Source: an uncultured bacterium (GTDB lineage: Bacteria > Patescibacteriota > Minisyncoccia > Phycocordibacterales > UBA6065). From it: DNA of 64,000 nt. The stretch is taken from NCBI GenBank assembly GCA_966243015.1, contig CBIMES010000001.1:50598-114597 (forward strand), read 5' to 3'. A program made the position numbers and the translations under genes. Shown here piece after piece: positions 4,491 through 62,194 of the stretch. Position 1 is the first letter of the stretch. Each line of letters opens with the position of its first letter. The notes beneath the pieces are model-generated. The model did no database searches and was not told the DNA's origin. It was given only the letters and a program-made list of their open reading frames with translations.

Positions 4491-5066
4491 CTAGAATCCG
4501 AGCGAGAACGTCATGGCGCTCTCGGCCTTCTTCTCCCAGTCCTTTGTGTCGAGCTTCATCTCCTTGACTGCGAGGCCGTCCTTCCACTTGAGGCTTCCGT
4601 TCTTGAGGGCGTAATCGTAGATCTCCTTGGTGACCTTCACGTCGTCGGTGCAGTACTTGATGAGCTTGTCGAACTCTTTGTTCTTCCACCAGGTGATCGC
4701 CTCGAGTCCGTGACCTGACTTGCCGTATCCGAGGGTCGCCTCGGCGAGGGTGTCGAGCTTGATGCGGAAGCCGATGGCTTTCTTTACCTCCTTGAGGAGG
4801 TCGAGGCTCTTGATCTTCGTGAGATCGCCCGGATAGTACTTGTCGAGGAGAGGAATGTCGAAGTGGTCGCCGTTGAAGGTGATGAGCATGTCGGCGTTCT
4901 CGAGGATCGGCCAGAGCTTGCCGAAGTCCTCCTGGAAGAAGTGCTTGTACGAGTCGGTCTCGTACTCGTAGGTGCAGACCACGGAGATGTCGAGGTCCTT
5001 TGGGTCGTTTGATCCTACGTCCTGGAAGAGGTTTCGGGTTTCGATGTCGAAGATGACTTTGCGCAT
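4491..5066 (-). CDS. 3'-5' exonuclease, RNase H-like fold (PolB-exonuclease-domain-like, YprB-type)
   Basis: KVIFDIETRNLF, FNGDHFDIPLL and YCTDDVKVT match DEDD-type exonuclease motifs Exo I-III. Start is chosen at the internal MRKVIF (ATG at 5064-5066); the track ORF extends to 5129. Confidence 0.65.
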   Translation of the reverse strand: MRKVIFDIETRNLFQDVGSNDPKDLDISVVCTYEYETDSYKHFFQEDFGKLWPILENADMLITFNGDHFDIPLLDKYYPGDLTKIKSLDLLKEVKKAIGFRIKLDTLAEATLGYGKSGHGLEAITWWKNKEFDKLIKYCTDDVKVTKEIYDYALKNGSLKWKDGLAVKEMKLDTKDWEKKAESAMTFSLGF

Positions 5067-5127
5067 GGATTCTTTGGGCTTCTGTCTTACGGTGGTTAAT
5101 TTTATGGAAGCATTGTAGCATGAGGCC

Positions 5128-5892
5128 ATGGATACGGTACTGAATCTCTATAAAAGGAAGAGCGAGACGCCGCTCCAGACGACGGAGCGCTTTGTGCAGG
5201 CGCGGCCCGAGTACTCGGGCCAGAAGATGACCTACGCGGGAAGGCTCGACCCGATGGCTGAGGGCGTCCTTGTCGTCCTCGTGGGCGACAAGGCAAAGGA
5301 GCGAGATTCCTATACGGGTCTCGACAAGGACTACGAATTCGAGCTTGTCTTTGGCGTGGAGACTGACACGCTGGATACCCTTGGTCTTATTACGGCCTCT
5401 CGTGAGGCAAAGCCGCTTCCAACCCTCGACGAGGTGAATGCCGCCCTCAGAAAATATGTTGGCACATTTGAGCAGCAGTATCCCGCGTATTCCTCAAAGG
5501 TGGTGAACGGCGTCTCTCTCTTTGAGTACGCGCGCCGCGGCACCATAAGCACCATCACGATCCCAAAGCACGAAGTCACGGTGTCAAAGCTCGAGGCGAC
5601 AGGCGCGAGCGATGTGAGCAGGGAGGAGTTGGGCCAGAAGATCCTCTCGTCGATAGCGGCAGTTCGCGGTGACTTCAGGCAGGGTCATATAGTCGAGGCG
5701 TGGGAAGGGTATCTGACTAAATCGGCACCCGCCACTTTCAAGGTTTATCGACTCTCGGTGTCCTGCGGCAGTGGCTTCTACGTCAGGCAGCTTGTGTCTG
5801 ATCTGGGAAAGGATTTCGGGCTCGGCGCGGTCACGCTCTCTATCGTGCGAACGCGAGTGGGGTCGTATTCGCTCGCGGACTCGATCCGCTAG
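5128..5892 (+). CDS. truB: tRNA pseudouridine(55) synthase TruB
   Basis: YAGRLDPMAEGVL matches the catalytic Asp motif (HTGALDPLATGML in E. coli); DKDYEFELVFGVETDTLD and FEYARRG match TruB blocks. Confidence 0.85.
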   Translation: MDTVLNLYKRKSETPLQTTERFVQARPEYSGQKMTYAGRLDPMAEGVLVVLVGDKAKERDSYTGLDKDYEFELVFGVETDTLDTLGLITASREAKPLPTLDEVNAALRKYVGTFEQQYPAYSSKVVNGVSLFEYARRGTISTITIPKHEVTVSKLEATGASDVSREELGQKILSSIAAVRGDFRQGHIVEAWEGYLTKSAPATFKVYRLSVSCGSGFYVRQLVSDLGKDFGLGAVTLSIVRTRVGSYSLADSIR

Positions 5893-6931: not shown

Positions 6932-7333
6932 ATGTACACACACGAGCTCACACGGGTATTGGGTCGTCCTCGTCGCTGGGAAAAAAGCCGGAGACAGTTT
7001 CGCCAGATGAGAAAAAGCTTTGATAAACTCAAGGCCGAAATCAGCAAGGTAATCGAAAGGTTCTGCAAGGGCAACAGCGCGATATCCTGGGACTGGATCG
7101 CGGATCCCGATGGTGGCGGGCGGCTCGCCTTTGTCCTTTGGGTGAAAGCGAAGCGCGAGGCGGCCATTGGGCAGTATGACGAAAAAATCAGTAGCCTGGT
7201 CAAGTGGCTCAGGCAAAGCATGGGTAAGTTCGTTAAAGTCACGCGACGGAAAGAGCCGCAGGAACTTACCAAAAGGGGCACCTTGCTCCCCATGGATAGC
7301 TTCCGCGCATTCGACCTCGCCCTTATCGGATAG
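6932..7333 (+). CDS. hypothetical protein
   Basis: The ORF ends just before a bidirectional terminator at 7344-7376 and has TATATA upstream. Overlapping minus-strand ORFs are also plausible, so the call is weak. Confidence 0.35.
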   Translation: MYTHELTRVLGRPRRWEKSRRQFRQMRKSFDKLKAEISKVIERFCKGNSAISWDWIADPDGGGRLAFVLWVKAKREAAIGQYDEKISSLVKWLRQSMGKFVKVTRRKEPQELTKRGTLLPMDSFRAFDLALIG

Positions 7334-7343
7334 TCGTTCAAGT

Positions 7344-7376
7344 AAAAAAAGGCTCACCACGGTGAGCCTTTTGTTA
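7344..7376. terminator. bidirectional terminator AAAAAAAGGCTCAC-CACG-GTGAGCCTTTT (member of a recurring GGCTCAC hairpin set)
   Basis: 7-bp GC stem with an A-tract before and a T-tract after. The same stem recurs at 30552..30569 and 44785..44802. Confidence 0.65.
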
Positions 7377-10641: not shown

Positions 10642-11256
10642 ATGAGACCCTTCATGAGCAAGCATTCGGAGAGGCGGAATTCTGAGTTTAGGCGGGTCGC
10701 TACGAGCTGGGCCATCGAATTTGGCCCTATCGTGGTCTTTTTTCTTACCGCAGAGTACGTTGGTCTTGTTAACGCCACGGGCCTTTTCGTCTTCCTGACG
10801 GCCCTTGCCCTTATCGCATCGTACTCGAAGGACCGTAGAATCGCCTTATTCCCGCTCCTCGCGGGCCTTTCAGTCATCATCTTTGGCTGTCTGACGGTGT
10901 TTCTGCACAACCCTCTCTATATCATCCTCAAGGATACGGTCTATAACGGCCTCTTTGCCGTGGCGATCGCCGTAGGTCTCTATGGATACGGGAGGCCAAT
11001 TCTGAAGGATCTCTTCAGCTCGCTGTTCCATATGACGGATAGGGGATGGATGATTCTTTCGAGGCGCTGGATGGTCATGTTCGTTTTCCTCACCGTCTCC
11101 AACGAGCTGGTGAGGCATCTCTTGGGTGCCGACGCCTGGGTCAATTACAAAATGGTTGCCACGTTCTCGACTATCGTATTCGGCCTCTATCAGATAACGC
11201 TCTCGAAGAGGGAGAGGATGCCTGACTCAAACAGGTGGGGGATGAATATCAAATAG
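10642..11256 (+). CDS. yciB: intracellular septation protein A family (YciB/IspZ-like) inner membrane protein
   Basis: Five TM helices and the overall YciB pattern. The start is chosen at the internal MRPFMSKH because TACAAT directly abuts the ATG; the upstream part of the track ORF is junk. Confidence 0.55.
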   Translation: MRPFMSKHSERRNSEFRRVATSWAIEFGPIVVFFLTAEYVGLVNATGLFVFLTALALIASYSKDRRIALFPLLAGLSVIIFGCLTVFLHNPLYIILKDTVYNGLFAVAIAVGLYGYGRPILKDLFSSLFHMTDRGWMILSRRWMVMFVFLTVSNELVRHLLGADAWVNYKMVATFSTIVFGLYQITLSKRERMPDSNRWGMNIK

Positions 11257-11521
11257 CCTCGGCCTCGAGGCATGATACGCGCGCGGCGAGGGCGTCATGC
11301 TCTTGCCGCGATATTTTATTGAGGGTGAGGTCGTCTATCTTTCCCTCGATGTTACCGATACGGTTCGAGAGGGAATCAAAGCGAAGGTCCATCTTTGTCT
11401 CAAGGCGAGATACCTCTCGCGACAGTTCCGCACGAAAGTCGTTTCGAAGGTTTGCCTCGAGCTCGTCGAATCTTTTCGTTACCATAATGGCGAGCATCTC
11501 GATGGTTATGCGCGGACTCAT
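11249..11521 (-). CDS. small coiled-coil protein, paralog B (90 aa)
   Basis: MSPRITIEMLAIMV.. with the same 5' nucleotide block and upstream palindrome as paralog A. Confidence 0.6.
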   Translation of the reverse strand: MSPRITIEMLAIMVTKRFDELEANLRNDFRAELSREVSRLETKMDLRFDSLSNRIGNIEGKIDDLTLNKISRQEHDALAARVSCLEAEAI

Positions 11522-24360: not shown

Positions 24361-24467
24361 CACACAAAGCAAAAGTCCTCAGGAAACTAGCGAGCGCGAC
24401 CGGCGCGAGCTCGAGGAATTTCCCAGCAGGGAAATATCCGTGTTCCTGAGGACTTTTGCTTTGTGTG
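24361..24467. repeat. palindromic element E1: 25-bp perfect inverted repeat (CACACAAAGCAAAAGTCCTCAGGAA / TTCCTGAGGACTTTTGCTTTGTGTG) enclosing a 57-nt core
   Basis: Core ACTAGCGAGCGCGACCGGCGCGAGCTCGAGGAATTTCCCAGCAGGGAAATATCCGTG is 100% identical to E2. It abuts the 3' end of tRNA-Phe. A-tract/T-tract flanks give bidirectional-terminator geometry. Confidence 0.75.
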
Positions 24468-24538
24468 CTTGGACCCAGGTTCGAACTGGGGACCCTTCCC
24501 TCTTCAGGGGAATGCTCTACCAACTGAGCTATCCAAGC
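24466..24538 (-). tRNA. tRNA-Phe (anticodon GAA)
   Basis: Manual fold: acceptor GCTTGGA/TCCAAGC, D arm GCTC-AGTTGGTA-GAGC, anticodon loop CTGAAGA, T arm CCCAG-TTCGAAC-CTGGG, discriminator A. Confidence 0.9.
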
Positions 24539-24594
24539 GGTTCATATAATCTAAGGCTTTTTCGCCCAAATCGCAAGGGTCTCGATTAAACGGA

Positions 24595-24694
24595 ATAAGA
24601 AAAGGCCTTTGGAAGACTAGCGAGCGCGACCGGCGCGAGCTCGAGGAATTTCCCAGCAGGGAAATATCCGTGCTTCCAAAGGCCTTTTGCTTAT
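24595..24694. repeat. palindromic element E2: about 21-bp inverted repeat (ATAAGAAAAGGCCTTTGGAAG / CTTCCAAAGGCCTTTTGCTTAT) enclosing the same 57-nt core as E1
   Basis: Same core as E1. The stems differ from E1 at three positions, each with a compensating change in the partner arm. The right arm overlaps the hsp20 stop codon (24691-24693). Confidence 0.75.
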
Positions 24695-35369: not shown

Positions 35370-36305
35370 TTATTTCGCGTTGAGGTACACGTAGATGTCC
35401 TCGAGCGCCTTCACGGCATCGCCCGCAGCGATGTTGTTCTGGTGGTAGAGTCCGTCCGTGCAGTCTCCGGCGGCCCAGATGCCCGGGGTTGAGGTTGCCT
35501 GAGTGCGTGGGTCGACGATGATACGTCCGTAGGGATCAACGCTCACGACCTCCTTGGCGAACTCGGTCGTAGGGATTGATCCGATCTCGACGAATATACC
35601 CGAGACAGGGAGCTCGACGCTCTCGCCGGACTCCTTGTTTTGGTAGGTGATCGAACTGACAAATTTCGTGCCCTTCACCTCAGTCGGCATGGCATTGGTG
35701 ATGGCGCGCATCTTTAGGTTCGAGAGCACCTTCTTTACGGTAACAGGATCTGCGCGGAATTCCTCGCTCCTGTTGAGGAGGGTGACCGACTTGCAGTACG
35801 CGAGAAGCTGCGAAGCGCTCTCGAAGGCGGCGTTGCCGCCGCCGATGACCGCTACGTCCTGGTCAGCGAAGAGCGGGCCGTCGCACGAGGCGCAGTAGGT
35901 GATGCCCTTGTGCTCAAACTTGTCGGCGCCGGGCACCTCGAGCTTGCGGCGATGGCTGCCGGTGGCGATGAGGACGGTCTTGGCGGTGTACGAGCCCTTG
36001 TCGGTCGTGACGGTGAAGGCTGTGCCTCCGTTCGGCGCGTCGGCCTTGGCGATCTTCTGGCACCACTCGCCAGTCTTGATGTCGACGATGTCTCCCGCAT
36101 AGGCGCGGAGGTGGGCTTCCATGCTCTTGGCAAAGTCGGCACCGGCGATCTTAATCGTGCCGATCCAGTTCTCGATGCCCTCGGAGACGGTCGATTGGCT
36201 CTCCCAGTCCTTGGTGATGAAGACGGTCTTGAGTCGCTTGCGCGAGGCGTAGACTCCCGCCGCAACTCCCGCTGGTCCGCCGCCGATGATTGCTAGGTCG
36301 TACAT
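35370..36305 (-). CDS. trxB: thioredoxin-disulfide reductase
   Basis: MYDLAIIGGGPAG (FAD), CASCDG redox-active CxxC, GGGNAAFE (NADPH), GIWAAGDCTD. Start is the internal ATG at 36303-36305. Confidence 0.9.
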   Translation of the reverse strand: MYDLAIIGGGPAGVAAGVYASRKRLKTVFITKDWESQSTVSEGIENWIGTIKIAGADFAKSMEAHLRAYAGDIVDIKTGEWCQKIAKADAPNGGTAFTVTTDKGSYTAKTVLIATGSHRRKLEVPGADKFEHKGITYCASCDGPLFADQDVAVIGGGNAAFESASQLLAYCKSVTLLNRSEEFRADPVTVKKVLSNLKMRAITNAMPTEVKGTKFVSSITYQNKESGESVELPVSGIFVEIGSIPTTEFAKEVVSVDPYGRIIVDPRTQATSTPGIWAAGDCTDGLYHQNNIAAGDAVKALEDIYVYLNAK

Positions 36306-36431
36306 GTGATTGAGGTTAGTGGGGTAAATTATAGCAAGTAAGCGCGGTGTCCGAACCTTGATTAGGTTACAGTCCCGTGCTGAAACTCGGTATACGACAT
36401 GCTCCAGCGTTCTTGGGAGATAAGAAGGCGT

Positions 36432-36533
36432 CCCGCGCACACCTTTTCAAAACCCTATCGAAGCGCGACTGGCGCTGAGATGAGAAAATCCCCAGTGAGG
36501 GGATTTTCGTGGTTTTGAAAAGGTGTGCGCGGG
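36432..36533. repeat. palindromic element E3: 23-bp perfect inverted repeat (CCCGCGCACACCTTTTCAAAACC / GGTTTTGAAAAGGTGTGCGCGGG) enclosing a 56-nt core related to E1/E2
   Basis: Core CTATCGAAGCGCGACTGGCGCTGAGATGAGAAAATCCCCAGTGAGGGGATTTTCGT shares the GCGCGACyGGCGC block and an A/T-rich inner hairpin (AAAATCCCC-AGTGA-GGGGATTTT) with E1. It lies directly 3' of ftsZ. Confidence 0.65.
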
Positions 36534-36537
36534 GAGA

Positions 36538-37740
36538 CTATTTCTTTCTCCTCAAGAACGCTGGAACCGCGCCCCAGTCGTCGTCCTCTGAGTCGATGGT
36601 AGGGATGGCCGCCTTCTTATCCTCGGGCGCTGGCTTTGGCTCCGGCTTCTCCTCCTTTGGGGCTGGTGCTGGCGGAGGGGTCACGCTGTTGTGAATCTTG
36701 CCCTTCGGAGCCTCCTCCTTCTGCTCTGGGGCCGATGATGAAGAGAAGAGGGACTTGCTGCGGACGGGTGCCGCGACCTGAGGGGCGTCGCCGAATCCGG
36801 ACGCGATGACGGTGATGCGCATCTCGCCCTTCTTGATCTTCTCGTCGCGGACGGTACCGAAGATGACCTTCGCGTTAGGGTCGATGGACTCGGTGATGAT
36901 CTTCGCGGCGTCCTGGATCTCGAACATGGTGACGTCGTCGCCTCCCGCGATGGAGAAGAGTACGCCCTTGGCGCCCGCGATCGATACGTCGAGGAGGGGC
37001 GAGGAGATCGCCATCTTCGCGGCGTCCTCGGCTCGTTTCTCGCCGGTGGCGAATCCGATGCCCATGAGAGCGGTTCCCGTGTTCTCGAGGACCGAGCGGA
37101 TGTCGGCGAAGTCGATGTTGATGATACCTGGGGTGGTGATGAGGTCAGAGATTCCCTCGACGGCCTGCTTGAGGACCTCGTCGCAGAGCGCGAAAGCGGC
37201 CTTCGCCGTGGTGTTGCGGTCGATATTGGTGAGGAGTCGGTCGTTCGGGATGACGATGATCGCGTCCACCTCCTTGCGAAGGTTCTCGAGAGCCTGCTCC
37301 GCGAGGCGCATGCGCTGGATGCCCTCGAAGAAGAACGGCTTGGTGACGACGGCGACAGTGAGTGCGCCGAGCTCCTTCGCGGTCTTTGCGATGACGGGTG
37401 CCGCGCCCGATCCGGTTCCGCCTCCCATGCCTCCCGAGACGAACACCATGTCTGCGCCCTTGAGGGCCTCCTGGAGCTCCTCCTTGGTCTCCTCGACTGC
37501 GCGTCGTCCGAGATCGGGGTTCATTCCCGTTCCGAGTCCCTTGGTGAGGTTCTTGCCCACGTGGATCTTCTTCTTGGCGAGGGAGTGATGGAGGTCCTGC
37601 GCGTCTGTGTTGACTGCGATAAAGTCCACGCCCTTAACCTTGGAGTTGATCATGTGGTTGAGGGTGTTCTTTCCGGAACCGCCCGCTCCCACGACTTTGA
37701 TGCGTGCGAACGTCTCTACTTCGGGAACGATGTTTGGCAT
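36538..37740 (-). CDS. ftsZ: cell division protein FtsZ
   Basis: GGGTGSGAAPVIA tubulin signature, T7 loop, C-terminal Pro/Ala/Glu-rich linker. Confidence 0.95.
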   Translation of the reverse strand: MPNIVPEVETFARIKVVGAGGSGKNTLNHMINSKVKGVDFIAVNTDAQDLHHSLAKKKIHVGKNLTKGLGTGMNPDLGRRAVEETKEELQEALKGADMVFVSGGMGGGTGSGAAPVIAKTAKELGALTVAVVTKPFFFEGIQRMRLAEQALENLRKEVDAIIVIPNDRLLTNIDRNTTAKAAFALCDEVLKQAVEGISDLITTPGIINIDFADIRSVLENTGTALMGIGFATGEKRAEDAAKMAISSPLLDVSIAGAKGVLFSIAGGDDVTMFEIQDAAKIITESIDPNAKVIFGTVRDEKIKKGEMRITVIASGFGDAPQVAAPVRSKSLFSSSSAPEQKEEAPKGKIHNSVTPPPAPAPKEEKPEPKPAPEDKKAAIPTIDSEDDDWGAVPAFLRRKK

Positions 37741-42924: not shown

Positions 42925-43030
42925 GGCTCCCGCATGGTGCTCAGAAAAGCACGGATATTTTCCTGGTGGAAAATTCCTCGAGCTCGGCCCGTCGGCCTCG
43001 CTAGTCTTTTCTGAGCACCATGCGGGAGCC
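42925..43030. repeat. palindromic element E4 (inverted orientation relative to E1-E3): 25-bp perfect inverted repeat (GGCTCCCGCATGGTGCTCAGAAAAG / CTTTTCTGAGCACCATGCGGGAGCC) enclosing a 56-nt core
   Basis: Reverse complement of the core (ACTAGCGAGGCCGACGGGCCGAGCTCGAGGAATTTTCCACCAGGAAAATATCCGTG) is about 85% identical to the E1/E2 core. The inner GC mini-hairpin differs by compensatory changes. Confidence 0.7.
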
Positions 43031-45931: not shown

Positions 45932-46083
45932 GGCTCTTTTCCCAGTGCTCGTTGCCAGTGGTCGCGGAAAAGGGTTACCGATCGGGCGGGATAAAATAAA
46001 AACTGACGAAAGTCAGGTAAAGGCAAGATACCATAAGTGGGGCTTCACGTAAAGCCTTACCTTGGCCGCGCGCGTCGACCTGC

Positions 46084-46359
46084 TTACGGGACCTTTTCCT
46101 CAAGCCTGACAATGCGTTTCTCGTGGTCCTGCCAGTTGCTTCGCGCGACGACGGTGAGGGATTCGAGGTTTCCTTCGACTCGGGTGAGTCTGGTGTCTAT
46201 GGTGTTGAGTTTCGTTTTAACCTCGGACATGTCGGTCTGAAGGTCATAGAGAGCGGGTTCAATGCTTGTCTTGAATTCGTGCATTTCAGCCTTGAATTCG
46301 TTGAATTCAACCTTGGTTACCATTCTCTCGTTGATATCGTCGAAACCGCGCTTCGTCAT
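46084..46359 (-). CDS. small coiled-coil protein, divergent paralog C of the 4132/11249 family
   Basis: MTKRGFDDINERMVTKVEFNEFKAEM.. aligns with MVTKRFDELEANLRNDFRAEL.. of paralog B. The start is uncertain because the frame stays open upstream. Confidence 0.45.
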   Translation of the reverse strand: MTKRGFDDINERMVTKVEFNEFKAEMHEFKTSIEPALYDLQTDMSEVKTKLNTIDTRLTRVEGNLESLTVVARSNWQDHEKRIVRLEEKVP

Positions 46360-46888
46360 GGTGGCGAGTTCGCCGACGGCATCGTCGACGATGACACGAA
46401 CCTCTCGTATCACCTCCTTGCTGATCTTTTTGCTGAGCTCTCTGCTCAGCTCGGTGCCAAAAGTCACGAGGTCTTTCCTCGTGATGGGGTCGCTGTCGCT
46501 TGTGTGGTGCTTTCTCCTCACGCCTGTAATTGTCGGGCTAAAGGCGATGAAATCCCATGAAATAAAAATCAAAGAGTGCTTTGGGCGAGAGTTTATGACT
46601 TTAGGCAAGCGGTACAAAAGAAAATGGCCGCACCTTGCGGTGCGGCCACGAGAGACCGGCTCGGCCTTTCGGTTGGCTTGGCAGACGTTCGCGTCGGGGG
46701 ACGCGCGGTGCGAGTGGTGGCCTGCATGTCGGCCGGCTCGTCCTCGGCTGCGTTGTTTCTGCCTGATTCGTCTTCCCGTGCTTGGCGCGGGGGGAGTACT
46801 CTGGAATCGCGTTGAATCGGTTTGCGGACCGGCTCGGTGAGCCGCGACCCTCAACCCCGACCGTTGCAAGCGGTCGGTTTGGCCAGTC

Positions 46889-46925
46889 TGCCCGGCGCCG
46901 GGCAGACTCGAGTTTTTCTTTGCCG
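46889..46925 (+). terminator. rho-independent terminator AGTCTGCCCGG-CG-CCGGGCAGACT plus GAGTTTTTCTTTG with no upstream CDS (end of candidate ncRNA)
   Basis: 10-11 bp GC stem plus T-tract on the + strand. Confidence 0.55.
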
Positions 46926-47042
46926 ACAGGCGAGGAACCGTTCCCGCATCTAGGCTACTCCCTGTGCGACGGGTGTCAATAAAGAAAGCGCCCCTTCTTG
47001 TCAATCTAGATGCGGAAAGGGAAATACACTATACTTCTCGGC

Positions 47043-57838: not shown

Positions 57839-57913
57839 GAAGGACAGGAGACAGGAAAAAGAAAAAGGCCCGCGCACATGTGCGCGGGCCTTTGATTTGC
57901 CCCGAACCGTTCC

Positions 57914-61230: not shown

Positions 61231-61279
61231 GATTACTATAGTATCAGAATTTATTGATTATGTCAATAAATCTGTCTGG

Positions 61280-61360
61280 TGCGCGAGAGAGGACTTGAAC
61301 CTCCATGCCTTGCGGCGCCTGCTCCTAAGGCAGGTGTGTCTGCCATTTCACCACTCGCGC
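61280..61360 (-). tRNA. tRNA-Leu (anticodon TAG), type II
   Basis: Manual fold: acceptor GCGCGAG/CTCGCGC, anticodon stem-loop CCTGC-CTTAGGA-GCAGG, long variable arm, T arm GGAGG-TTCAAGT-CCTCT, discriminator A. Confidence 0.85.
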
Positions 61361-61419
61361 AGATGCGTTCAGTATAACAAAAGAGAGAATTTCGAATGTG
61401 CCGAATCTGACCTTCATCA

Positions 61420-61445
61420 CTTCCTGTATGGGTACATACAGGAAG
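61420..61445. repeat. hairpin CTTCCTGTATG-GGTA-CATACAGGAAG (11-bp perfect stem) between tRNA genes
   Basis: Seen directly in the sequence. Confidence 0.6.
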
Positions 61446-61456
61446 TGTTTCGCTCG

Positions 61457-61500
61457 GAAACGGCCCCGGAAGAAAGCTAGCTTTCTTCCGGGGCCGTTTC
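61457..61500. repeat. perfect 44-bp palindrome GAAACGGCCCCGGAAGAAAGC-TA-GCTTTCTTCCGGGGCCGTTTC between tRNA-Lys and tRNA-Leu(TAG)
   Basis: 21-bp arms around a central TA, with no loop; likely a processing or terminator structure. Confidence 0.65.
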
Positions 61501-61511
61501 GCTCACTCGAG

Positions 61512-61584
61512 TCCTTCCTGTAGGGATCGAACCTACGACCTTATCCTTAAGAGGGATCTGCTCTACCAACTGAGCTAAGGAAGG
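61512..61584 (-). tRNA. tRNA-Lys (anticodon CTT)
   Basis: Manual fold: acceptor CCTTCCT/AGGAAGG, D arm GCTC-AGTTGGTA-GAGC, anticodon loop CTCTTAA, T arm GTAGG-TTCGATC-CCTAC. Confidence 0.8.
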
Positions 61585-61652
61585 GTGTTTCAGTATCTTA
61601 CAACAGCTTTGATTTTTTTTCCAGTCCTGGGCCTTCCCGAGGGCTCTGGCGG

Positions 61653-61739
61653 TGCCCAGGGTCGGATTCGAACCGACATGCTCTGTTACGAGCGGGAGAT
61701 TTTAAGTCTCCTGCGTCTGACCAGTTTCGCCACCCGGGC
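61653..61739 (-). tRNA. tRNA-Leu (anticodon TAA), type II
   Basis: Manual fold: acceptor GCCCGGG/CCTGGGC, anticodon stem-loop GGAGA-CTTAAAA-TCTCC, long variable arm, T arm GTCGG-TTCGAAT-CCGAC. Confidence 0.85.
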
Positions 61740-61754
61740 GGCGTTTCTACCGAG

Positions 61755-61826
61755 AGGCCACGGCGAGAATCGAACTCGCGCATAGAGATTTTGCAGATCT
61801 CCGAATTACCACTTTTCTACGTGGCC
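61755..61826 (-). tRNA. tRNA-Cys (anticodon GCA)
   Basis: Manual fold: acceptor GGCCACG/CGTGGCC, anticodon stem-loop GAGAT-CTGCAAA-ATCTC, T arm GCGAG-TTCGATT-CTCGC, discriminator U as expected for Cys. Confidence 0.85.
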
Positions 61827-61864: not shown

Positions 61865-62194
61865 TTAGAGCCCATTCGTGAGCGCGTCAATTTTCTGGCG
61901 GCTCTTCTCGCCCTGGTCGATGGCGAAGTCGAAGAAGGGGATGCGCATGAGGCGGCCGTGCTCCTTGACGAACTCGCGGAACTGGCCGCGCTGCCTCTTG
62001 GCGAAGTCGAGGGCGGCGTTCTCCTGGTCCTCGGGGAGCACGGTGAAGAAGATCGTCGCGGTCGAGCCCTGCTGGTTGGTCTCGATCTTGGTGACGGTGA
62101 TGAGGGAGGTGCGGTTCGACTCGAGCGAGAGGAATCGCGCCGCGAGGTCGCGGATGATCTCCTCGAATCGTCCCTGCTTGATTGATGATGACAT
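61865..62194 (-). CDS. rbfA: ribosome-binding factor A
   Basis: KH-like RbfA pattern (RFEEIIRDLAARFL..TVTKIETNQQGSTATIFFTVL); position immediately downstream of infB. Confidence 0.8.
   Translation of the reverse strand: MSSSIKQGRFEEIIRDLAARFLSLESNRTSLITVTKIETNQQGSTATIFFTVLPEDQENAALDFAKRQRGQFREFVKEHGRLMRIPFFDFAIDQGEKSRQKIDALTNGL

Follow-up and report, generated by a model that had tools for sequence, protein, structure and literature searches.

Palindromic repeats in a small genome have been described in Rickettsia as RPE-1 and related families (RPE, Rickettsia palindromic element; Ogata et al. 2000, as summarized in PMC10969869). Here, we analyzed a comparable family found in a 64-kb stretch of DNA from an uncultured bacterium of the Patescibacteriota (assembly GCA_966243015.1, contig CBIMES010000001.1, positions 50,598 to 114,597); the whole of this stretch is referred to below as the window. 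An earlier examination of its letters (the original prediction) had reported four palindromic elements of ~100 nt, E1 to E4, at gene ends. We conclude that E1 to E4 belong to a real, widespread repeat family of Paceibacteria that has apparently not been described before. Copies are dispersed, have been gained and lost between close relatives, lie in either orientation, tolerate translation in six frames, and sit in frame in loops and linkers of essential proteins. Our preferred reading, to which we assign a probability of roughly 60%, is that they are nonautonomous, RPE-like mobile foldback elements that move via a folded single strand with inverted target duplication.

RPEs and the present family have much in common: both are palindromes of ~100 to 150 nt with a long hairpin fold, are present in many copies in a small, reduced genome, and have no associated transposase. 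Both also insert frequently and in frame into unrelated housekeeping genes, where they add a peptide at tolerated positions, as well as into noncoding DNA (PMC10969869). The family described here differs in its host phylum, Paceibacteria, and in its apparently unrelated sequence. It also differs in having a conserved apex on a mostly locus-specific stem, in the evidence for a long inverted target duplication, and in the use of both orientations and several frames within one family. RPEs are the nearest system in behavior, with membership failing on host and sequence. The original prediction had offered a structured element under selection for pairing, similar to ERIC or Correia repeats, as one of two explanations; it was the closer of the two, although the nearest analogue proved to be RPE. 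Two traits of the family are unusual: the target is duplicated in inverted form, and the apex is conserved while the stem varies.

Other small repeats are less similar. [quoted passage not shown] Like MITEs, Correia elements (CREE), ERIC, RUP, BOX, and SPRITE, the E1 to E4 family is small, nonautonomous, multicopy, and able to form stable hairpins. It is also often found at gene ends, where bacterial palindromic repeats can act as terminators or RNA stability elements; SPRITE repeats are terminator-like (PMC10969869). In contrast to MITEs, the ends of the element vary and its center is conserved, and arms unlike those of any other copy were found in 109 of 133 cases (of at least 133 distinct true copies). 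The family resembles IS200/IS605 and PATE elements, REP/REPIN-RAYT systems, and attC sites in that one strand carries the fold, sequence varies while structure is kept, and no classical inverted ends are needed; the strand-specific fold is the only shared feature that was tested. REPs are 20 to 40 nt long, and attC sites have conserved outer boxes and a variable apex, the reverse of the arrangement here. No Y1/HUH transposase or integrase was found near the copies (500 flanking open reading frames [ORFs]), and we know of no inverted target duplication created by IS200/IS605, REP/RAYT, or attC.

A conserved core within variable stems

All four copies in the window were confirmed in position, each a 57-nt core inside a 21- to 25-bp stem, and all adjoin the gene ends originally named (tRNA-Phe, hsp20, ftsZ, and a small ORF near lepB). 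Pfam backed the identity of Hsp20, and the LepB, FtsZ, and tRNA-Phe assignments were also correct. E1 (24361 to 24467, sense strand plus; 90.0 bits in a covariance model and supported by folding) comprises a 5′ arm (24361 to 24385), a core (24386 to 24442), and a 3′ arm (24443 to 24467). Its 5′ arm begins 5 nt after the stop of a 72-amino-acid plus-strand ORF, and its 3′ arm adjoins or overlaps by 1 to 3 nt the 3′ end of tRNA-Phe (24465 to 24538, minus strand). E2 (24595 to 24694, sense strand plus; 91.4 bits) has its 5′ arm at 24595 to 24615, core at 24616 to 24672, and 3′ arm at 24673 to 24694; the predicted overlap of its stem with the hsp20 stop codon was found, at 24691 to 24693 within the 3′ arm. 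E3 (36432 to 36534, sense strand plus and antisense to ftsZ; 59.9 bits) starts 3 to 4 nt past the ftsZ stop and consists of a 5′ arm (36432 to 36454), a divergent core (36455 to 36511), and a 3′ arm (36512 to 36534). E4 (42925 to 43030; 86.8 bits) has its sense strand on minus, with the 3′ arm on the lepB-promoter side (42925 to 42949), the core at 42950 to 43005, and the 5′ arm at 43006 to 43030. It is located between the lepB promoter and the small ORF's own hairpin, and weaker complementarity extends ~20 nt outwards on either side of it. The covariance model scan of the window returned these four copies only, the next match scoring 13.8 bits. Two window inverted repeats with ~52- to 56-nt spacers (46938 to 47021 and 61956 to 62043) are not copies of the family.

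The E1 and E2 cores are identical, as first reported (57/57 nt, including a 54-nt exact match of which 0 were expected by chance). The E4 core is likewise inverted and close to the predicted ~85% identity (86% to E1, on the reverse strand). E3 is indeed divergent, but its core is 73% identical to that of E1 and not ~65%. Perfect pairing of every stem held for E1 (25/25 bp), E3 (23 bp), and E4 (25/25 bp) and was slightly overstated for E2, whose stem has 16 perfect bp, a 1-nt bulge, and 5 more bp. Each difference between the inner stems of E1 and E2 is matched in the partner arm; the differences amount to three substitutions plus one indel and not to three positions. The A-tract and T-tract flanks attributed to all copies are present in E1 and E2, inside the stem, and absent from E3 and E4.

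On the sense strand (plus for E1 to E3, minus for E4), the core reads as a junction of AC/CC-U, hairpin P2, a junction of C(N)GA, hairpin P3, and a closing 3′ GUG. P2 has a 3- to 4-bp stem, a symmetric tandem GA/GA internal loop, a 4- to 5-bp G+C stem, and a GAC(N)G loop; P3 comprises ~10 bp, a bulged A, and an AGCA loop. The conserved unit is a three-way junction of ~57 nt plus a short proximal stem, often with another tandem G·A motif, and in some subfamilies it also includes up to ~30 nt of carried arms. Of the stem, only the proximal 5 to 8 bp are semiconserved. Folding gave the three-way junction on both strands of E1 to E4, with z scores of −6.8 to −11.9 relative to shuffles.

Compensatory variation of the inner hairpins (GCGC/GCGC versus GGCC/GGCC) had been noted in the window, and this covariation was real and general across 92 diverse copies. 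Standard pairs occupied 91.7% of cells over 24 pairs, compared with 62% after shuffling, and double-sided changes were present in 674 cells versus 218 after shuffling. None of 500 shuffles was as high in these values, and sliding the partners against each other collapsed the covariation signal. The covariation of the stems is no search artifact, because loop and junction bases were the only ones specified in the search patterns.

Searches beyond the window supported the prediction that the elements form a true family, in which the core is conserved, the stems are particular to each locus, and variation is compensatory; further copies were present both genome-wide and in relatives. A degenerate core pattern matched 23 loci in ~17 metagenome-assembled genomes labeled Candidatus Taylorbacteria, Paceibacterota, or Parcubacteria, and a second pattern matched at least 120 metagenome loci; all pattern matches were in Paceibacteria, Taylorbacteria, or Parcubacteria assemblies. 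Two metagenome matches, L050 (TypA) and L071 (YchF), were chance pattern matches and were excluded, which left at least 133 distinct copies. The density is about one copy per 16 kb. Arms are sometimes shared: six copies in four different genes have arms of at least 27 nt in common, and the 34-nt arms of two paralogues in L132 are alike, their helices covarying and their GA-rich loops conserved. The core is no known named repeat, in agreement with the first assessment. Rfam returned nothing beyond tRNAs for the window at gathering and E value thresholds (the best subthreshold match was a plant microRNA hairpin, at 29 bits against a threshold of 90), the core pattern had no match in IMG/VR, and we found no description of the family in the literature on palindromic elements, MITEs, and RPEs of the candidate phyla radiation (CPR)/Patescibacteria. 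As a separate observation, L151 has three variant relatives of the family (2252 to 2336, 11248 to 11301, and one in the lepB-upstream region) that share the outer ends CCCCGYC...GGCTAAAAGAAA.

The tandem G·A pairs, sometimes accompanied by U·U, recall the kink-turn (K-turn) or box C/D motif. A K-turn consists of tandem sheared G·A pairs beside a 3-nt bulge, flanked by C and NC helices. We rejected this assignment: the loop is symmetric and lacks the 3-nt bulge, and the register of the long distal stem excludes such a bulge. The same absence bears on the idea that the copies are dispersed guide-RNA hairpins, of a TIGR-like or other RNA-guided CPR system, in which the stems would target and the core, through its box C/D-like GA motifs, would serve as a handle for a protein. 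In favor of this idea, the stems are variable and the handle is conserved, and some copies contain RUGAUGA...CUGA-like sequences that form G·A, A·G, and U·U pairs. TIGR stem-loop arrays with variable palindromic stems and GA-containing box-like motifs are, moreover, known in CPR bacteria (PMC12045711). However, TIGR loci are tandem arrays next to a Tas (Nop-domain) gene and carry variable spacers in their loops (PMC12045711), whereas the present copies are dispersed, form no arrays, have no recurrent Tas/Nop gene nearby, and have the loop as their conserved part. Membership in TIGR-Tas is ruled out by the dispersed copies and the conserved loop. The arms had no second match in 1.2 Mb of related loci, save the same locus in duplicate assemblies, and the two long arms tested had none in IMG/VR; at resolvable sites they copy adjacent DNA. 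A guide function is largely refuted by these data, and we regard it as very improbable.

Turnover and the origin of the stems

A comparison with orthologous loci lacking the element showed that close relatives differ in its presence or absence at the same sites. We compared the ftsZ neighborhood across nine relatives (FtsZ identity of 83 to 98%), in which the syntenic 21 kb contain 0 to 3 copies each; the turnover was seen among relatives with 90 to 98% FtsZ identity. Directly after ftsZ, a copy is present in the window (E3), L024, and L028; the latter two have one common copy that is distinct from E3, with other arms and an E1-like core. At this site, L025, L026, L027, and L029 have plain 10- to 12-bp terminators with GAAA, GTAA, or GCAA loops. 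Upstream of the lepB promoter, copies are present in the window, L025, L028, L029, and L078, and none in L024; an apparent core remnant in L024 (CACGGATA) was reread as native upstream sequence. L026 has at the lepB site a variant relative of the family with a longer core of ~80 nt (4524 to 4615; 30.6 bits). L027 has a 23-bp perfect hairpin there (~5090 to 5150) with an 11-nt loop (gttgttgccct) and no core, which may be a copy with a deleted core. Separately, the entire ftsZ-trxB intergenic region of the window (36300 to 36430) shows no relation to the same spacer in the closest relative (98% FtsZ identity), and the relatives compared (L024, L025, and L028) are alike there; the ftsZ-trxB spacer, including E3, was therefore replaced as a block.

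The comparisons also revealed where the stems come from. At E3, complementarity runs ~30 nt past the perfect 23 bp, and the left flank pairs with the 3′ coding end of ftsZ: TCCAGCGTTCTTG matches at 13/13 positions, after which there are mismatches and a gap of 3 nt; the codons for RRKK and the stop also come after TCCAGCGTTCTTG. The left flank is 82% identical to the reverse complement of the right flank over 73 aligned columns, and the extended stem has 47 pairs. The native template of this inverted duplication (36535 to 36565, minus strand) is the ftsZ 3′ coding end (..VPAFLRRKK*, stop at 36538 to 36540), and the decayed outer part of the 5′ arm (36403 to 36431, plus strand) is an inverted copy of the last ~9 ftsZ codons, the stop, and the spacer. 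Conservation of the ftsZ end in all relatives identifies the left copy as the duplicate. In E3, the inner 23 bp are perfect and the outer duplicate is ~25% diverged.

The insertion in L029, upstream of the S1-domain gene, is resolvable in the same manner. The motif CCTTTACTCGGGAGG, i.e., C(C)TTTACTCGG(G/A)AGG, is native and single copy in L024, L025, and L026, with no inverted partner. In L029, the insertion lies directly left of this motif, and its outer end is the exact reverse complement, CCTCCCGAGTAAAGG, which is found only beside the inserted core. The promoter-side arm of E4 is homologous to single-copy sequence in the element-free L024, and the 3′ arm of E2 includes the hsp20 stop codon, with weaker complementarity running beyond it into the hsp20 3′ coding end. 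In each of these four cases (E3, L029, E4, and E2), the native copy lies 3′ with respect to the sense strand. We conclude that the long stem at resolvable sites is an inverted duplication of the 3′-side flank of the sense strand. We did not adopt the general rule that the native flank is always 3′ of the sense strand, which holds at the informative sites and is unconfirmed at scale.

The second explanation originally offered was that a small mobile core enters the loops of existing terminator hairpins, so that the stems would be host terminators; in the form weighed here, a core of ~70 nt with short inverted ends would transpose specifically into apical loops. This is what the ftsZ site of two relatives looks like. 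The outer stem of the L028 copy, AAAAGAGCCCC (AAAAGAGACCC), is the stem of the plain ftsZ terminator in L025: the latter reads AAAAAGAGACCC-GAAA-GGGTCTCTTTTT, and L028 reads AGAAAAGAGCCCC[TCAAGAAG-core-CTTCTTGA]GGGGCTCTTTTCT. Elements thus also enter, or land beside, hairpins that are already present, and the A/T tracts that flank E1 and E2 and the nesting of the L078 element within an outer hairpin fit the same scheme. However, the E3 stem extends into ftsZ coding sequence, and the empty sites corresponding to L029 (in L024, L025, and L026) and E4 (in L024) contain the flank once, with no inverted partner. Coding insertions, furthermore, bring the stem as well as the core, and the plain terminator stems of relatives are 10 to 12 bp and not 23 to 45 bp long. 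Invasion of terminator loops thus describes the L028/L025 site but not E3, L029, or the coding sites, and as an account of the family we consider it decidedly improbable.

Two local arrangements were noted at copies of the element. The L078 copy (7275 to 7360) has 33-bp perfect arms, and the second, outer hairpin around it (GGCCTATAAAG...CTTTTTAGGCC) looks like a host terminator. In L004 (5368 to 5536), hsp20 is followed by a single element and then by a convergent tRNA-Phe, while in the window (24361 to 24694) tRNA-Phe lies between two direct copies, E1 and E2, and is codirectional with hsp20. The three stems are related, and judging from these arrangements the difference speaks for an element-mediated inversion or duplication at this locus.

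Copies inside genes and the folding strand

About a quarter of the copies lie in frame within long open frames of housekeeping genes, in both orientations and several frames. Such coding insertions were seen in relatives and none in the window itself. Hosts with Pfam support are DnaE, IF-2, dihydroorotate dehydrogenase (DHODH), and MnmA (two sites); sequence inspection and alignment added TsaD, RecG, IscS/NifS, HrcA, Tgt, LeuRS, Mpg, an ABC-F ATPase, and ComFC. Every coding copy is in frame and open; the insertions fall between Pfam domains or in loops, and orthologues without the element are 22 to 39 residues shorter at the insertion point. The core is stop free in all six frames in 76 of 133 copies (57%), compared with 3.7% of composition-matched shuffles. 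The window copies have CTAG where coding copies have CTTG.

One protein site recurs. The hairpin of MnmA between ATGHY and KDQSYFLW, a β-hairpin, is an insertion hot spot at which about half of the 60 closest MnmA homologues (P0241 to P0300) carry 10 to 55 extra residues. These inserts include the E1 to E4 family, in sense (P0241 and P0242) and antisense (P0243, P0248, and P0294) orientation, plus several unrelated palindrome-like families. Two copies at the same MnmA site, L153 and L133, keep all structural features, both sides being altered in most stem pairs. A variant relative of the family was also noted at the linker site of IF-2, where two proteins (P0002 and P0003) have a longer insert with similar arm peptides.

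The mismatches in the stems identify the strand that folds. Flawless arms were found in only ~11 of 135 copies, the window copies being unusually clean. With a scoring scheme that treats all mismatches alike, G:T exceeded A:C (143 versus 41; P = 2 × 10−14) and G:A exceeded C:T (269 versus 45; P = 5 × 10−40). Tandem G·A pairs peak 6 to 7 bp from the junction and again at ~19 to 25 bp. The mismatch bias was the same whether copies were sense or antisense to host genes, convergent, or internal, and copies antisense to both neighbors had 22 G:T and 0 A:C mismatches. Orientation relative to genes was unbiased (22 versus 18 for intergenic and 29 versus 19 for internal copies). Copies at the two sites 6 kb apart face opposite ways, in the window as in its relatives; therefore, neither host transcription nor the direction of replication explains the folding strand. 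In the simplest reading, the element is copied or moved as the folding strand. Active lineages would then be the source of much of the variation in the arms, although the perfect inner 23 bp of E3 and the L153/L133 pair are compatible with constraint in situ and may reflect it.

Gene ends and the proposed route of movement

Intrinsic terminators consist of a G+C-rich hairpin followed by a U-tract, with an A-tract before the hairpin if they are bidirectional. The original prediction had likened the copies to elaborate bidirectional terminators, which is locally plausible at the window gene ends but is not supported as their general nature. The A- and T-tracts of local terminators have been retained within the stems of E1 and E2, and E3 occupies the position of the relatives' plain ftsZ terminator; from their sequence and placement, all three may plausibly still serve as 3′-end hairpins.

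A broader alternative is that the whole family is a host-beneficial, cis-acting structured RNA, such as a terminator, 3′-end stabilizer, or protein-binding site, whose pairing is kept by selection on the RNA. The position of every window copy next to a gene end speaks for it, as does the finding that, in both codirectional classes, the element lies within ~10 to 15 nt of the upstream gene's stop codon. Mirrored A/T tracts are present in 43% of intergenic copies and in 75% of those between convergent genes. The strong covariation, the G·U and G·A character of the mismatches, the perfect inner 23 bp of E3 beside a decayed outer duplicate, and the structure preserved through many double changes in L153 and L133 are also what selection on an RNA would leave. 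In contrast, the favored strand is the same for sense and antisense copies, so that the host mRNA often carries the "wrong" strand, and orientation relative to genes shows no bias. Many copies are placed within ORFs, in which terminating transcription would be lethal; of the 67 intergenic copies, 15 have divergent genes on their two sides; and close relatives that differ in presence or absence otherwise use plain terminators. No U-tract follows the stem in E3 or E4, and a terminator scan called only the inner hairpin of E3, missing E1, E2, and E4. Taken together, we consider a general host function of this kind unlikely, if less so than invasion of terminator loops.

For the mobile foldback reading, we propose that the propagating intermediate would be a single-stranded, folded copy of one particular strand, which would integrate at a nick or break. 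The folded end could then prime snap-back synthesis, or a template switch could occur, so that the adjacent 3′ flank would be copied backwards. The outcome would be a stem that is unique to its locus, perfect at first, and later lost to decay from its outer end inwards, and copies would persist only at sites tolerated by the host, namely, gene ends, linkers, and surface loops. The window copies may persist at gene ends as permissive sites, where the extended hairpin could replace a terminator or 3′-end stabilizer.

Several observations weigh against mobility of this kind. Clustering of the 500 neighboring ORFs gave housekeeping families only, with no recurrent transposase or reverse transcriptase, and no autonomous parent element was found among the examined 8- to 21-kb loci. 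No clear direct target site duplication was seen, apart from a possible TTT at L029, the ends being hard to define as the arms vary. Four to five resolvable sites form the basis of the inverted-duplication model. Gene stop codons are about equally frequent in left and right arms (9 versus 8), and L090 may contradict the polarity by which the 3′ side is native. At coding insertions, the closest empty orthologues are 50 to 73% identical, and the native arm is not distinguishable there. At the L028 and L025 site, entry of the element into the loop of an existing terminator accounts for the data just as well. The L153/L133 pattern could reflect selection for structure in place and hence a host-level function, and palindrome correction at the DNA level, instead of selection, could be what keeps stems perfect.

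We put forward more tentatively, as a possibility that we rate below even odds, that the family represents a new class of bacterial mobile element, whose limits would be set by structure and not by terminal sequences and in which integration of the folded strand and hairpin-primed synthesis would copy the 3′ flank. Such a class would leave long inverted target duplications, with stems that record past insertion sites, and would supply a steady flow of new in-frame peptide segments to essential proteins of ultrasmall CPR bacteria. CPR/Patescibacteria genomes are among the smallest and most streamlined known, and a selfish-looking structured repeat is tolerated in them, even in DnaE, IF-2, and tRNA-modification enzymes. 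The protein-coding palindrome, so far a curiosity of Rickettsia, is thereby extended to a second, unrelated lineage of reduced, host-dependent bacteria, which suggests a general link between genome reduction and palindromic elements of this type. To our knowledge, the mechanism of RPE mobility has been unknown for 25 years; the inverted flank duplication and the strand-specific fold are testable clues to a mechanism of mobility. In practice, gene callers (through extra peptides), terminator predictors, and noncoding RNA screens in CPR metagenomes will be misled by the family.

Other structured sequences were seen in the window. Two perfect spacerless palindromes, at 61457 to 61500 and 57864 to 57893 (arms of 22 nt and 15 nt), look like coreless long hairpins or terminators, and the first adjoins a tRNA cluster (61277 to 61826). 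Between the S1-domain gene and a Lactamase_B_3-like gene, ~1 kb (45,950 to 47,000) is apparently noncoding and is conserved in relatives (L024, 1952 to 2647; L025, 310 to 847; L029, 2850 to 3494). This region had no match in Rfam and terminates in a hairpin plus T-tract, and it may be a large, unannotated structured RNA.

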